Shown here one piece after another: positions 30,061 through 50,194 of a stretch of DNA of 64,000 bases. Every line of letters begins with the position of its first letter. The stretch's first letter is position 1. The translations under genes were made by a program, and so were the position numbers. Below the pieces are notes generated by a model. It was not told where the DNA came from. It saw only the letters and a list, made by a program, of their open reading frames with translations, and searched no databases. The DNA is from Patescibacteria group bacterium UBA924 (GTDB lineage: Bacteria > Patescibacteriota > Microgenomatia > UBA1400 > PJMF01), in the NCBI GenBank assembly GCA_002293725.1, contig DBDU01000015.1:19793-83792 (forward strand). The letters are read 5' to 3'.

Positions 30061-30159
30061 CTCTCTTTCCCTTCATTATTCAAAGTTCTGGGTCTTTTTG
30101 CAACTACTGTCTTCAAGTTAGCAGCAAATGAAAGAAGATATTCAAGATATAATACCTGC

Positions 30160-30612
30160 ATGATCTTGCTCGAGAATCGAAAAGCATCACAAGAATATGA
30201 GTTCCTGGAAAGTTATGTCGCAGGTATCGTTTTGCATGGCTCCGAAGTAAAGAGCTTACGACAGAAAAGTGGCAGCTTCACCGGGAGCTACGTCAAGGTC
30301 TTGGGGAACGAGTTATTCTTATTGAATGCTCAAATCACGCCGTACAAGTTTGCCGATAATCGCGAGTATGACCCCAAACGAACTCGGAAGCTCCTTTTAA
30401 AAAGACGTGAGATTAATCAGCTCATTGAAGCAACTCAGCAAAAAGGGCTGGCATTAATTCCTCAAAAATTTGAACTACTGGGAAATACGATTAAGTTGCG
30501 TTTCGCCTTAGCTCGAGGAAAAAAACAGTATGAGCGCCGCGCTGAGCTAAAGAAAAAAGCGATTGAACGAGACATTCAGCACGAGCTAAAACACAAAGTA
30601 AGAATCAGGTAG
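30160..30612 (+). CDS. smpB: SsrA-binding protein SmpB
   Basis: 150 aa; ...ASQEYEFLESYVAGIVLHGSEVKSLR... and basic C-terminal tail. Confidence 0.85.
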   Translation: MILLENRKASQEYEFLESYVAGIVLHGSEVKSLRQKSGSFTGSYVKVLGNELFLLNAQITPYKFADNREYDPKRTRKLLLKRREINQLIEATQQKGLALIPQKFELLGNTIKLRFALARGKKQYERRAELKKKAIERDIQHELKHKVRIR

Positions 30613-30622
30613 GATGCTACTC

Positions 30623-31762
30623 CGTTCAAATACGGTCACCCGCTAATTTAAAAAAGAGTGGTAGATCAAGGTTTGGATTTTTTGTTAACGATAAGCTTGA
30701 GAACCCATTTAAGTTCGCAAACTTCCCTTCACAATCAGTAAAAGGTTTTAGCCTTCTCCTCAAGAAATATCCGTTTAACCACAATGTAGCGTGTTCAAAT
30801 GAATCAAATCCTTTAATACTCTTTAGTCGGCCTTGAAGGTGGGAGTTAAAACTCTCAATTAAGTTAGTGGTAGTAGGGATTTCTTCATCATGCAGATACC
30901 CCAGCAATAGATCTTTTTTTGCTTCTAAATCAATTAAAATTGACGTGCAAAGTCTATCAGGATAGTGTATCTGAATAATTTGGGTAAGCTCTTGAATAAA
31001 GCTTAGTTCAGAATATCGATGCTTAAAAAGTCGACAGAGCGCAAAAAAAAATGGTCGATAGTGATAGTTAAGGTCTAAACGAAGTAAAAAGCGGATTGAT
31101 CGAAGATAATGCAGTTGACAGAGCTGGACAACTGCACCTGGGAAAACCTCCAAACAAGCCCTGTAAATATTACTATTGTCATCACAGACCAAAACGCGTA
31201 AGGGATAGTTGAGCTCTTTTAACTTCTGAAAAAAAGCTAGACAGGTCTGATAACTCTCGGCAGTTGAAAGCAGATAGTAGGGAATGTCGTGGCTGGCGTA
31301 GTCCAAGCCATACAGAACAGGAATTTTTCTCTTGTATCCTTTTACAGCTAGATACTTTCCATCTACTAAAAGGATGCCAGAGAAATTAGTGCAGTATGTC
31401 CGAGTAATTTCTGCACAGTCTGGAAGTTGTTTTAAAACTTGCGCACAGTAGTTATAAGCACTACCGAGGCTAATGTGATATTGGTTTGAAAGCGCACGAA
31501 AAGGAACTCCATCAATGTGTGCCCACAGAAGTCTGTACTTTTTAAGCGATGCAGCCCTATTAATTTGAAACCAACGATTACATTTTTGGCAGTGATACTT
31601 TATCTTTCCACGCCGAACACCTTTGCGAAAAGTTACTGAAGATTTACATGATGGACATCGAGGGTTTTTTTCATCTGTAAAGCATACTTCACCTAGTCAA
31701 CAGCTGTTTTTCTCTTGGTCGATAAGCGAAAATTGAAGTGTTTTGTGACCAATTTTGAACGG
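30623..31762. mobile_element. Insertion sequence (~1.14 kb) with 18-bp imperfect terminal inverted repeats, IS1595/IS1-like
   Basis: Left end CCGTTCAAATACGGTCAC (30623-30640) vs reverse complement of right end CCGTTCAAAATTGGTCAC (31745-31762), 15/18 identical; encloses one transposase reading frame; sits in intergenic space between smpB and a convergent gene. Confidence 0.6.
30626..31696 (-). pseudogene. IS transposase (Zn-ribbon N-terminus + DDE domain) lacking a canonical start codon
   Basis: Stop-to-stop frame of 357 codons: N-terminal CPSCKSSVTFRKGVRRGKIKYHCQKCNRWF zinc ribbon, then LLVDGKYLAVKG (D1), VLVCDDNSNIY (D2), ESFNSHLQGRLKSIKGF (E) DDE-like signature; no ATG/GTG/TTG in first 127 codons (tracked ORF begins at an internal TTG). 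Confidence 0.55.
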
Positions 31763-31773
31763 TCTCAGGAGTT

Positions 31774-33693
31774 TTATAGTCCCACTTCATACACCAGCGA
31801 ACCACTAAGGGCAAATGCCTTAGAGTGTTTCTCACTGGCTACCACCGCTGTGGCTCCAGCTAGCTCATCACTTTTGATCTCTTTAATGAACTGACCTTCT
31901 TTATTCAGAACGACTACTCTGCTTTTTTCTGGTTCGAGTACATAGAGGTTCTGTAAATCGGGTTTAGTAAAAATACTAATTGGCGTAGTAAATGGGTCTG
32001 CCAGTCCTGAAATCTCAAAAGCAGCTGTTCTCCCCCCTGAAAGCTTCAGAATCTCTCCTGTCTGAGTAGAAAGCCAGACATCACCATCAATCGCAAAGGT
32101 CTGGACATTGTTGAGATCAACACCTTGTCCGGACTGAATCCAAGCGGTAGGTTCGCTATCTAGCTTGTCGTCTTCGGTGTCATAACGGAAGATGTTATTT
32201 CTAGTCTTGTTGAGTACGTATAGGTACTTGTCGAACAGTCCCAATGACTGACCATCAGTAATAACGTCATCTGAGTTTTCTACGATACTTGCGACTTCGG
32301 TGCCACTCAAAGTAAAGCGGAAAAGACCCTGACCCAAGAAGTAGAGAAACTCGTCGTTGGCAACCAGAGCGCGAATATCGGGATACTCGCCAATTGGTAG
32401 CAGCGTAGGCTGTTTTTTCTCGATATTTAACGCCAAGATACGACGTTGGCCAGAGTCTAAGAAAAACAATGTCTCCGCCGTAACATCAATCCTGCTAGCT
32501 AAAAAGTTGGACTGCACCAAACGCAGATCGAAAAAGGTGGGCAGATGTGGTAACTGCGTTTGCCCTGAGATACTTTGATTAAATTCTTTGATGGTGTCTA
32601 GTTGTGCTTGAAGTGCTTCTTGAACAAACTTTGGTTGAGCCTGATCTTGGGCTTTGGCTTCTACCTCAGTGATTAACAGTCCCAGCTGTGCTCGCGCCGT
32701 TACGGGATCGTTGACTGACAGATCTTTGATTTGGGCAAACTGCGTTTGGTAGGGTGTTAGGATCGATGCAACTTGTTTCTGTTGCTCCTGTCTATGATTT
32801 CGCCAAAAACCCAGTGCGCCAATTGCAATCAAGAGCAGCGCCAAAAGAACTAGTCCCACTTTCAAGGCTGAGCGTCGATGTTTCTGTCTAACATATACAT
32901 CCTGAGAAAAGAGCTGTCCGAACTGCGCAGATACTCCTTTAACTGCTCTTCGTACGCCACCGACACCTTTCCCTACTCCGTGAGTAACTTTACCTAAAGG
33001 GGTCGCTGGTGGAGAGATCGTTTGAGACAGCTGCTGGTCTACCTCAGCAGGAGTAAGCATCGCCGGTTGGGAGCTATCATGCAGCTCCACCGAATCCACT
33101 CTGTCATCACTTACCGCTTCAACATCTTTAACAGCAGCTACGCTTAAGCCAGTTAATGGTTCATCAGCACTTCCATGCACTGCTGATCGGAGTTCTGGTA
33201 GCTCAATTAAGGTCGCAGCCGTTTGGGCGGTCGTTTTTGCCAGGGCATCTTGAATGAGGGCTGAAAGTGGCATTGCCTTCTGGGTAAACAGTGCATAGAC
33301 GTCGTCCACCTGAGTTTTTCCTTCAAGCAACTGTAAGGTACTTTCAGCACTCAAAATTTGGCCGACTTTAGATCCTCGCTTCAACCAAACACTTCCGTTA
33401 TATGCCGCCAATACAACTCGATCTTCCATCACTCCCATACTCACCAAAGACAGCTCCACTTCCATCCGCTCAGCTGTGGAGATACATCTATCCAAAAGTT
33501 GGTGCAGCTCTAGGCTACTTTGGGGAGCTTCGTGATCAAACTGCTCTTGGCAGTAGTGTAAAAAGGCTTCACCAGCATTTGCGGAGGAAACGGCATACAG
33601 TACCACCAGGTCTTGTGTCGGGTGAATAAGCACCCCACTCCGTTGGTTGTCTGTTGCTTGACCAACTAATGTCCGTTGAAGAAGTTTCAACAT
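31774..33693 (-). CDS. Hypothetical bitopic membrane protein: cytoplasmic N-domain, single TM, extracytoplasmic repeat (beta-propeller-like) C-domain
   Basis: 639 aa; TM LKVGLVLLALLLIAIGALGFW mid-protein; C-terminal repeats LYFLGQGLFRF / YLYVLNKTRNNIFRY / LYVLEPEKSRVVVLN. Confidence 0.3.
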   Translation of the reverse strand: MLKLLQRTLVGQATDNQRSGVLIHPTQDLVVLYAVSSANAGEAFLHYCQEQFDHEAPQSSLELHQLLDRCISTAERMEVELSLVSMGVMEDRVVLAAYNGSVWLKRGSKVGQILSAESTLQLLEGKTQVDDVYALFTQKAMPLSALIQDALAKTTAQTAATLIELPELRSAVHGSADEPLTGLSVAAVKDVEAVSDDRVDSVELHDSSQPAMLTPAEVDQQLSQTISPPATPLGKVTHGVGKGVGGVRRAVKGVSAQFGQLFSQDVYVRQKHRRSALKVGLVLLALLLIAIGALGFWRNHRQEQQKQVASILTPYQTQFAQIKDLSVNDPVTARAQLGLLITEVEAKAQDQAQPKFVQEALQAQLDTIKEFNQSISGQTQLPHLPTFFDLRLVQSNFLASRIDVTAETLFFLDSGQRRILALNIEKKQPTLLPIGEYPDIRALVANDEFLYFLGQGLFRFTLSGTEVASIVENSDDVITDGQSLGLFDKYLYVLNKTRNNIFRYDTEDDKLDSEPTAWIQSGQGVDLNNVQTFAIDGDVWLSTQTGEILKLSGGRTAAFEISGLADPFTTPISIFTKPDLQNLYVLEPEKSRVVVLNKEGQFIKEIKSDELAGATAVVASEKHSKAFALSGSLVYEVGL

Positions 33694-49050: not shown

Positions 49051-50194
49051 GATTATGCAGATATTAGCAATCTTGGAACACGACAGTGGTGGAGAGCTTA
49101 AAGCAGCCAAGTCACTTTTAGATGCCGTTACACGAACTGGTTCTCCAGTTATGTATACGTATGGAGCGCCGCTACGCCGCACAGGACTCCTTCACTACCT
49201 GTTCTGGATCGTCACTTCCCTCGTTCAGAGCTCTTGGCTGGCACTCAAACATCGACGGTTTGAGGTTGTATATACCACCTCTTATACCGCTGCGTTGGGG
49301 TCTTTGATTGCTCGACCTTTTACCCAGCAATTTATCTGCTTTCACTATCACGGAAGTCGGATCCCACCTCAAGAAGTTCCTGATACAAGCTGGTTGCAGC
49401 GTCATACGCAGTCTATCAAGCACGCTATGGTGAGTTACCTTCATCGATGGACATGGTCTCAAGTCAATCTCTTCATCTCTCCTTCGGAACACACCCAACT
49501 GAGGTTGGCAAAAAGCTTCCCTAACTTAGGAAGAGCTCAACTTATTCTTCCTAATGGCGTAGACACAACATTCTTCTATCCGGTGAGCGAAGCATACAAA
49601 CAAAAGTTGCGAAAACAGTTTCATATCCCTAAAACAGCACTCGTCTGTTTGGTAATTGCTCGTGCAGAACCTCAAAAAAAGATAGAGGACTCTATTGCTT
49701 TTATTACCGATATTCAGCGATACAGCCGCAAACAAGTTCTGCTCCTCCTCGCTACTCCCCAGATTGGAAATAACCCTGAATATCTTGTTTCTTTACAGCA
49801 GTTTTTAGCTCGTACAGAGCTACCTCATCTGTTGATTCAGGATCATCCGAATACTCCTGAACTGTACCAAGTAAGCGACTGTGTAATTAGTCATTCCCTT
49901 CAGGAGGTTTTTCCTCTAGTCTTACTTGAAGCAAGCGCCTGTGGAGTGCCTTACTTTGCAAAGAAGAACGGGGCGGTCGAACATTACCTTGTCCCACTTG
50001 ACCCAAACCTGATTTTGTCAGATGACTCAGTCCAAGCCGCCCGTCAGGTACTTTCCATCACACACAAGCAGAAACGAGCTGAGCTTCTCCGCCAATTTGC
50101 CTGTCACCATACTTGGCAAGCGAGCGCCTCACTTCTACTGATAACCTTACAAAAACAACGAAGAAATGAAAAAAAAAGTTTCGCCACCATTTAG
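49034..50194 (+). CDS. Glycosyltransferase family 4-like (GT-B)
   Basis: 386 aa; C-terminal ...HSLQEVFPLVLLEASACGVPYFAKKNGAVEHYL... Confidence 0.5.
   Translation: MLRTSKIMQILAILEHDSGGELKAAKSLLDAVTRTGSPVMYTYGAPLRRTGLLHYLFWIVTSLVQSSWLALKHRRFEVVYTTSYTAALGSLIARPFTQQFICFHYHGSRIPPQEVPDTSWLQRHTQSIKHAMVSYLHRWTWSQVNLFISPSEHTQLRLAKSFPNLGRAQLILPNGVDTTFFYPVSEAYKQKLRKQFHIPKTALVCLVIARAEPQKKIEDSIAFITDIQRYSRKQVLLLLATPQIGNNPEYLVSLQQFLARTELPHLLIQDHPNTPELYQVSDCVISHSLQEVFPLVLLEASACGVPYFAKKNGAVEHYLVPLDPNLILSDDSVQAARQVLSITHKQKRAELLRQFACHHTWQASASLLLITLQKQRRNEKKSFATI

Follow-up and report, generated by a model that had tools for sequence, protein, structure and literature searches.

A probable recoding site directly after the start codon in an IS256-like transposase family of Patescibacteria

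The 64,000-nucleotide stretch of DNA analysed here (the window; Patescibacteria group bacterium UBA924, contig DBDU01000015.1, positions 19,793 to 83,792) carries, next to smpB, an insertion sequence (IS) whose transposase frame has no start codon of its own ahead of the zinc ribbon that it encodes. Ahead of the ribbon stands an ATG whose register differs by one base from that of the long frame, and seven consecutive A's (A7) come immediately after it. We propose that the transposase is expressed by obligatory programmed recoding on this A run, a reading that we consider probable from comparisons of the element with its relatives. These comparisons show that the frame offset is shared within the family and kept by selection, and that the shift has to lie in the 17 nt separating the ATG from the first cysteine codon.

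The transposase frame lies on the minus strand between TGA codons at 31697-31699 and 30626-30628, the second of which is inside a terminal inverted repeat (TIR). It comprises 356 codons, and not 357 as the original prediction had it. That prediction also placed the first ATG, GTG or TTG of the frame downstream of the zinc ribbon, which is correct, but at codon 128; it is a TTG at codon 131 (31304-31306). The publicly annotated transposase of this locus, a 226-residue protein (P0002 / MBW7955221.1), begins at this TTG. A protein initiated there would be without the zinc ribbon and without the catalytic residue D105, which is encoded upstream of the TTG, and the annotated open reading frame (ORF) is an artefact that arises because an in-frame start is lacking. 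The original prediction had raised the possibility that homologues begin at the internal TTG; instead, they begin just before the zinc ribbon, 3-8 residues ahead of its first cysteine. Those with an in-frame start codon begin with MKKNPTCPKC, MKNNPKCPKC or MKNPRCSQC.

The out-of-frame ATG (31672-31674) is contained in cagATGAAAAAAACCCTCGATGTCCA. When ATG AAA AAA A|CC CTC is read with a -1 shift, or with one added A, the product begins with MKKNPRCPSC, which is the consensus N-terminus of the family. Read unshifted, it yields a 13-residue peptide, MKKTLDVHHVNLQ. Because the asparagine and proline that follow the run match those of the in-frame members, the shift must fall within the run, and the first cysteine codon is reached 17 nt past the ATG. 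The original prediction had suggested looking upstream for a frameshift motif such as an A7 run, and one is indeed present; it stands directly after an out-of-frame ATG, however, and is not a junction between OrfA and OrfB of the IS1 or IS3 type. We rejected an alternative genetic code with TGA as a sense codon, since it provides no start further upstream through the TIR and since relatives have TAA before the run.

The same frame is unusual in a second respect. In the window copy and the subfamily that includes one of its relatives, L008, there is no ATG and no GTG in 356 codons, which makes the encoded protein methionine-free. Methionine accounts for 0.8% of residues in the family, compared with 1.7% in the long ORFs of the window, and this scarcity may reflect avoidance of internal initiation.

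The frame offset across the family and selection on it

We fetched 80 metagenomic relatives of the element, examined 59 distinct 5' regions among them, and read seven further types by hand. An out-of-frame ATG or GTG stands ahead of an A run in 44 of the 59 distinct relatives, or about three quarters. These fall into two groups: 35 in which ATG or GTG is followed by A6-A8 and a -1 shift is needed, 32 of them without any in-frame start, and nine in which the start and run need a +1 shift, none of them with an in-frame start. A further 12 have an in-frame start. Six of these keep an A run, which is interrupted and one base longer in five of the six (ATG AAA AAY AA...). The last three are start-less and have no recognisable combination of start and run. 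The types read by hand comprise two of the -1 kind, one of the +1 kind, three that are start-less without a run, and one in-frame. Throughout the family the runs are A6-A8, mostly A7.

In the -1 group, 17 nt separate the ATG from the first cysteine codon; members with an additional codon have 20 nt, and one member has 11 nt. This distance is always 2 modulo 3, and it is unchanged whether the run is A6, A7 or A8. This constancy indicates that the length of the run has changed by substitution and not by insertions or deletions (indels). Nearly all relatives keep 333-344 intact codons from the first cysteine to the stop, the exceptions being L005, L066 and L078.

Two relatives illustrate how the layout persists. 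L008, the closest relative at 85% amino acid identity, sits at a different genomic site with an intact target duplication. Its ATG is followed by A8 and then CC where the window has A7 and then CCC, which is a substitution; the frame offset is identical, and again there is no in-frame start. In L002 (53% identity) the start and run read ATG ATT AAA AAA ACC, and the transposase frame has a TAA immediately before AAA AAC CCT AAA TGT. With a TAA directly before AAA AAC CCT, initiation in that frame is inconceivable in L002. The family in which the start-less layout is found diverges to about 44-50% identity.

In a neighbour-joining tree, the -1 state is present in every major clade. The in-frame members are grouped in a small number of derived clades, and most of them have a run that is one base longer and interrupted (AAAAAYAAT). 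On this topology the -1 state looks ancestral. Both the -1 and the +1 configurations are maintained and they interconvert between sisters, +1 members often being sisters of -1 members (L039/L041, L026/L029 and L009/L010). A separate look-up found an uninterrupted in-frame A8 in P0013, a member of the in-frame clade, and it looks like a "slipped" product that was fixed in the DNA and later stabilised by substitution.

Among the divergent 5' layouts, L050-L054 (two copies on contig Ga0209417_1000079) read ATG TAA ATC TAA TCC, with TAA TGT AAA TCT AAT CCT AAA TGC in the transposase frame. L068-L072 and L080-L083 read ATG AGG TGG TCA AAA GGG TTA, a +1 configuration in which A4G3 replaces the A run and purifying selection still acts (pN/pS 0.15). 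This A4G3 may be an XmYn-type slippery site.

We reasoned about selection from two sets of comparisons, one between members of the family and one between copies of the same insertion. Between the window copy and L008, which are both of the -1 kind, dN/dS is 0.058 over the whole frame and 0.12 over the N-terminal 115 codons (dS 0.8), that is, the part upstream of the internal TTG with the zinc ribbon included. For L042 and L057, again both -1, the corresponding values are 0.054 and 0.046 (all by NG86). Pairs containing +1 members have an uncorrected pN/pS of 0.14-0.29, and the in-frame pair L038 and L022 one of 0.145, with pS near saturation in each case. In the family alignment C29 and C32 of the ribbon are invariant and C7 and C10 at least 90% conserved. 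By these measures, purifying selection is shown to act on the whole frame, including the zinc ribbon.

The same insertion, between smpB and a gene for a 639-residue protein, is found in five other assemblies from different projects (L089-L093), which were reached via P0121-P0123, cluster mates of P0002; all contigs with the 226-residue product represent this one locus. Two of the five are identical to the window and three differ from it at about 2% of positions. Across the six assemblies, which comprise four haplotypes, A7 is invariant and the element contains no indel. The differences among the haplotypes are synonymous at 32 codons and nonsynonymous at 3 (P = 3e-18 given 78% nonsynonymous sites). 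The element's pS is about 0.09, compared with 0.04-0.13 in the flanking genes (smpB, cmk and the 639-residue gene), the pN of the flanks is equally low, and the element's pN/pS of 0.013-0.038 is as low as that of smpB and cmk. The haplotype data therefore indicate that the window copy has been vertically inherited under a constraint as strong as that on smpB and cmk. Synonymous diversity is unusually low towards the 5' end, where the first 117 transposase codons hold 4 of the 35 variable codons (L089-L093 compared with window positions 30100-32300).

A constraint of this kind raises the possibility that the transposase has been domesticated, with the copy by smpB kept for a cellular function and the out-of-frame start limiting its dosage. 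This would be compatible with recoding, and we regard it as conceivable, though doubtful. All four haplotypes have the copy at one and the same site, where it has diverged in step with the flanking genes; it is constrained as just described and is apparently single-copy. Its TIRs, however, are still near the family consensus, and the presence of L008 at a different site with a fresh 9-bp duplication indicates that the subfamily is mobile.

Alternatively, the A run could be a contingency locus for phase variation at the DNA level, at which replication slippage occasionally yields an in-frame A8 ON allele and OFF alleles dominate the assemblies. Homopolymer runs are classic contingency loci, and both the interconversion of -1 and +1 states between sisters and the uninterrupted in-frame A8 of P0013 would fit such a scheme. 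We nevertheless find it unlikely. A7 does not vary among four haplotypes at a pS of about 0.09, although these are consensus assemblies in which rare ON subpopulations could go unseen. In the family, run length varies by substitution at a constant ATG-to-cysteine distance of 17 or 20 nt. In-frame members bearing the run amount to one (L033) in the 59-locus survey, with P0013 as a second, and an exact look-up of ten "repaired" in-frame products found none among 15 billion predicted proteins.

The original prediction had offered initiation at a non-canonical codon as one explanation. Rare non-canonical starts do exist in bacteria, and for a start at the internal TTG alone, giving the 226-residue product, there is the public annotation. 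Neither form is at all likely. More than 12 relatives have a stop 4-5 codons before the first cysteine, so that AAA AAY CCN AAA alone is open to a start in the transposase frame. The ribbon cysteines are invariant or nearly so, and N-terminal dN/dS is 0.05-0.12; this part of the frame is hence translated, and the TTG product would miss it together with D105.

The idea that the copy was recently inactivated had also been put forward, and it fares slightly worse; the event would be a 1-nt deletion in an ancestral A8 that killed the gene. A homopolymer is a mutation hot spot, the window copy is single in the window and has no target duplication, and its TIRs (15 of 18 positions) are less perfect than those of many relatives. 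But the layout is that of L008 and of about 75% of the family, and the same frame offset recurs in L008, L002 and about 35 other diverged lineages. A dN/dS of 0.06, the part upstream of the TTG included, is not that of a dead gene, and at a pS of about 0.09 neutrality would predict some 70 nonsynonymous changes where the haplotypes hold 3 nonsynonymous against 32 synonymous codons, with no indels or stops. Finally, a sequencing or assembly error concealing a true A8 can be dismissed, error-prone as homopolymers are on some platforms, since six independent assemblies, made in different projects, all have A7 and the same offset occurs in dozens of unrelated metagenomes, with A6, A7 or A8 at a constant total distance.

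Proposed route of recoding and the upstream region

Under the proposed recoding, translation would start at the out-of-frame ATG and the frame would be corrected inside the 7 bases that follow. This could happen in two ways. RNA polymerase could add one extra A to the mRNA, or a ribosome with Lys-tRNA could slip back by one base on AAA AAA. Both routes would lead to the same 349-residue protein, MKKNPRCPSC.... Without a shift only the 13-residue peptide, whose sequence is not conserved, would be made, and the run would thus act as a pure throttle on transposase synthesis with no second protein. In the relatives, 2-5 codons precede the shift and the zero-frame peptides, from 5 to at least 50 residues long, are not conserved, which argues that they are a by-product and that there is no OrfA.

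The region upstream of the ATG bears on the choice between these routes. A TANNNT hexamer and the start codon are separated by exactly 6 nt in 32 of 48 relatives and by 7-8 nt in eight more, with 0-5 members at other spacings. In the host, smpB and several other genes have the arrangement TATAAT-N6-8-ATG. A Shine-Dalgarno sequence precedes only 5 of the 47 host genes of the window (crude start calls), and in several a TATAAT-like hexamer stands 6-8 nt ahead of the ATG; the gene starts noted here are those at 30160 (smpB), 4309, 34721, 3572, 33693 and 59191. Many mRNAs of the host are apparently leaderless, as is common in some bacteria (PMC4007540). Taken together, the spacing of the hexamer and the rarity of Shine-Dalgarno sequences in the host suggest that the transposase mRNA is leaderless, starting at its AUG, and that the hexamer is a promoter element. 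With such an mRNA the A run would fall at +4 to +10, the zone in which transcription becomes reiterative most easily.

A near-palindrome of the pattern TTSAC-N2-3-GTSAA precedes the hexamer by about 8-10 nt, at a conserved position in the relatives (L001-L088). It occurs in several symmetric variants (TTGAC/GTCAA, TTCAC/GTGAA, TTAAC/GTTAA, TTACACT/AGTGTAA and TTCATCG/CGATGAA), a pattern that points to a probable operator or binding site for a dimeric protein. Two other roles were rejected: as a -35 box, its TTGACT would be just 8-10 nt from the -10-like hexamer, and as a slippage-promoting RNA hairpin it would be misplaced, being upstream of the hexamer and about 25 nt from the run.

From this arrangement we favour transcriptional slippage as somewhat probable, and consider ribosomal slippage, as an unstimulated slip of Lys-tRNA soon after the start of a leaderless mRNA, a real but lesser prospect. 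There is precedent for several elements of the scheme. Transcriptional slippage has been shown for IS1447 and for a Roseiflexus IS630; in IS1447, A7 is sufficient for slippage (+1) and the native A9 slips in both directions (PMC6211511). Reiterative transcription is common at start sites, where A's are the bases mostly added, and it can be productive (PMC4448216). The ISMich2 group of Mutator-like transposases has a conserved -1 frameshift (PMC3942029). With regard to ribosomal slippage, there is no sign of an upstream stimulator resembling a Shine-Dalgarno sequence, only 6 nt being available between the -10-like hexamer and the ATG.

Several observations weigh against recoding on the A run, or against a particular form of it. 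Programmed transcriptional realignment is usually said to need 8-9 nt (PMC3711429), and the A6-A8 runs fall short of this. We found no conserved RNA structure in the 60 nt after the run (mean z = +0.45 for 34 members of the -1 type compared with shuffled sequences), and in the zero frame, ATG AAA AAA ANN, an X XXY YYZ heptamer is mostly absent, the preceding base being G or T. Lacking downstream structure and mostly lacking an in-phase heptamer, the family offers no support for efficient ribosomal frameshifting in the style of IS1 and IS3. Upstream of the transposase no canonical -35/-10 promoter pair (sigma-70) was found. A minority of start-less members have no A run (the multi-copy L050-54, L043, L086, and L068/L080 with A4G3), and these the A-run model fails to explain. 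Strong purifying selection on a fixed, single-copy IS is unexpected for a purely selfish element, and more than transposase throttling, domestication for instance, may be involved. The slippage itself is also inferred from conservation and selection only, and its mechanism, the promoter, the leaderless transcript and the throttling role are likewise inferences.

An ORF of 988 codons at 50166 on the plus strand of the window begins with ATG AAA AAA AAA, so that A9 directly follows its start codon. Should A runs in this position be slippery in this organism, the expression of host genes could be subject to the same effect.

The element, its family and its surroundings

The element is a structurally intact, bona fide IS of the IS256/Mutator superfamily. 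Its transposase matches PF00872 (Pfam Transposase_mut) at 28.1 bits, with a gathering cut-off of 21. A profile built from 21 family members matches ISCth4 (PDB 6xg8, "Mutator family transposase") over the catalytic core (E = 2.6e-6), with D, D and E aligned. Every curated NCBIfam IS model, on the other hand, scored far under its cut-off. The best of them, NF048019 ("IS256 family transposase, variant Zn-binding type"), reached 52.5 bits against a cut-off of 150, and NF033543 (48.3 bits; cut-off 150) and NF033544 (IS1249; 37.7 bits; cut-off 300) failed as well. Scores this far below the cut-offs place the element in a distinct, deep clade within the superfamily. Membership of IS1 was rejected (NF033558, 31.6 bits against 100), as was a zinc ribbon of the IS1595 type (PF12760, Zn_ribbon_IS1595, 11.7 bits against 25.4; NF050000, IS1_IS1595_Zn, 20.3 against 28).

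The original prediction of an N-terminal CxxC...CxxC zinc ribbon and a DDE-like triad holds up in the family alignment. The ribbon consists of C7, C10, C29 and C32. The triad consists of D105, D165 and E274, all invariant columns with spacings of about 60 and 110 residues, and it aligns with the ISCth4 motifs iDAIHF, CaDAL and TTNTIESLNS. With IS256 and the prokaryotic Mutator-like elements (ISCth4, NF048019) the element shares a DDE core, a single transposase gene, short TIRs and, in its relatives, 9-bp target duplications; with the Zn variant of IS256 it shares the N-terminal four-cysteine ribbon. It differs in its smaller size, about 1.15 kb where IS256 elements usually measure 1.2-1.5 kb, and in that most members of its clade have no in-frame start codon. 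A word-indexed protein search returned 733 relatives at E<=0.001. The best 120 of the 733 are mostly about 342 residues long and mostly from Patescibacteria, and many of them are on contigs of about 1,150 bp, which is the element assembled alone. The zinc-ribbon-bearing clade is very abundant in Patescibacteria, and the family is large and apparently undescribed.

The TIRs described in the original prediction are present, with a small correction. One arm, CCGTTCAAATACGGTCAC, is at 30622-30639 on the plus strand, and the other is found as the reverse complement of CCGTTCAAAATTGGTCAC at 31745-31762. The left end is thus 30622 and not 30623, and the span from TIR to TIR is 1,141 bp in place of 1,140. 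The 18-bp arms agree at 15 of 18 positions. Taken alone, the degenerate TIR pattern is weakly above chance in the window. The same TIRs, with the consensus GAGACCGTTCAAAAACGGTCACC, delimit about 45 of the fetched relatives, at lengths of 1,125-1,233 bp and mostly 1,131-1,171 bp. With TIRs recurring in dozens of copies and homologues starting just before the zinc ribbon, the prediction of a complete IS element is borne out. The tips of the element were set from relatives whose 9-bp target duplications define the ends: L044 (TCACTTGTG), L003 (AAAAATGGA), L008 (CCATTCAGT), L026 (CAGCCACAG) and L056 (TCTGGCGTG). Judged from these, the element probably ends about 4 nt beyond the TIR arms on each side (Table 1). 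The TIRs, at 30622-30639 and in the family, also hold an internal inverted repeat, ACCGT-TCAAAA-ACGGT, and each end could form a small hairpin.

Table 1. Features of the insertion sequence in the window
Feature	Coordinates	Strand	Remarks
Whole insertion sequence (probable extent)	30618..31766	minus	About 1,149 bp; core TIR-to-TIR span 30622-31762
TIR, transposase-upstream end	31745..31766	minus	GAGA + CCGTTCAAAATTGGTCAC; fits family consensus GAGACCGTTCAAAAACGGTCACC
Near-palindromic motif TTGACTAGGTGAA	31688..31700	minus	Family pattern TTSAC-N2-3-GTSAA; position conserved in relatives
-10-like hexamer TATGCT	31681..31686	minus	6 nt upstream of ATG
Probable start codon ATG	31672..31674	minus	+1 frame relative to transposase frame
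A7 run, proposed recoding site	31665..31671	minus	Directly after ATG
Zero-frame mini-ORF, read if no shift occurs	31633..31674	minus	MKKTLDVHHVNLQ, then stop
Transposase reading frame	30626..31696	minus	356 codons between stops, plus stop codon; 349-residue protein predicted after recoding
N-terminal zinc ribbon CxxC...CxxC (C7, C10, C29, C32)	31580..31657	minus	Conserved in family
Catalytic core	30854..31363	minus	D105 31361-63, D165 31181-83, E274 30854-56
226-residue ORF from internal TTG, publicly annotated	30626..31306	minus	P0002 / MBW7955221.1, "transposase", "Patescibacteria group bacterium"
TIR, downstream end	30618..30639	minus	GTGACCGTATTTGAACGG + AGTA; holds transposase stop TGA 30626-30628

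The position 3' of smpB given by the original prediction is accurate: the element begins 6-10 nt past the smpB stop codon (30610-30612). At its other end it is 7 nt from the stop codon (31774-31776) of the convergent 639-residue gene, which leaves only a handful of intergenic bases on either side. As also predicted, the window copy has no target duplication, the best of several registers matching at 5 of 9 positions. Searches of the window by tblastn, blastn and TIR pattern found no second copy or fragment of the element, and a single scan of a collection of genome contigs returned only relatives of at most 53% identity. No tmRNA adjoining smpB was found within the window.

Relation to known recoding systems

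The layout proposed here has parallels in IS1 (A6C) and IS3 (A6G/A7), which likewise combine an A-rich slippery run, the -1 direction and down-regulation of the transposase. In those systems, however, the shift joins a functional OrfA to OrfB, takes place on a phased X XXY YYZ, and has a stimulator, either a downstream structure or a Shine-Dalgarno-like sequence upstream (PMC6211511, PMC3942029). Here the run begins at codon 2, the zero-frame peptide is not conserved, there is no conserved downstream structure, and +1 members are under selection too. The homopolymer A run is also shared with IS1447 (IS3 family) and the Roseiflexus IS630, which use programmed transcriptional slippage, and the two-way slippage of IS1447 fits the coexistence of -1 and +1 states. 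In both of these the run is at a mid-gene OrfA/OrfB junction after a hairpin, whereas here no hairpin adjoins it and it lies at the very beginning of a message that is probably leaderless. The ISMich2 group (p-MULT) is similar in that a -1 frameshift, conserved and interpreted as programmed (PMC3942029), gives back a full-length transposase of the Mutator superfamily, but it differs in its two-ORF arrangement, its clade and its hosts, and a run-after-start architecture has not been described for it.

A different kind of parallel is reiterative transcription at initiation (pyrBI, codBA, upp and pyrG; pervasive in Streptococcus agalactiae), where a homopolymer likewise lies in the first ~10 transcribed bases, extra A's are commonest and extension is productive (PMC4448216). 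The known cases regulate genes of nucleotide metabolism via the 5' untranslated region or the choice of start site, and in the present family the start site is deduced from the hexamer spacing. We know of no case in which reiteratively added bases restore the reading frame of a transposase. In the literature on frameshifting or slippage in IS256, on insertion sequences of Patescibacteria and the candidate phyla radiation (CPR), and on leaderless reiterative transcription, we did not find this arrangement described. What would be new is a shift site adjoining the start codon of a message that is probably leaderless, with no upstream protein, both directions tolerated, and CPR hosts.

A broader hypothesis, which we put forward tentatively and think less probable than recoding as such, is that, in a Patescibacteria-wide IS256-like clade, leaderless transcripts lengthened by RNA polymerase with non-templated A's at +4 to +10, through reiterative transcription, are the sole source of transposase, and that the window copy is in addition kept by host-level selection, whether domesticated or long tolerated. 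If so, transposase output would be set by the frequency of slippage, and possibly by the ATP pool or growth state. It would also be the first case of an entire IS family whose transposase genes are normally expressed through frame restoration by slippage at their very start, and there could be a tie to the unusual translation apparatus of the CPR. The protein bL9 helps to maintain the reading frame. Several CPR lineages are without bL9 (PMC9297842).

The finding bears on the annotation and the biology of these elements alike. Gene callers truncate such transposases and may also invent upstream starts, and in a family that has hundreds of members in CPR genomes this mis-annotation touches about three in four. 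In IS1, IS3, IS630 and ISMich2 recoding is always at the OrfA/OrfB junction; at codons 2-3 it would be a minimal, pure throttle. The family could serve as a natural test bed for distinguishing polymerase slippage from ribosome slippage in uncultivated bacteria with reduced genomes. Given strong purifying selection on a single, vertically inherited copy, it may further be asked why a transposase should be kept in a streamlined genome of about 1.2 Mb.

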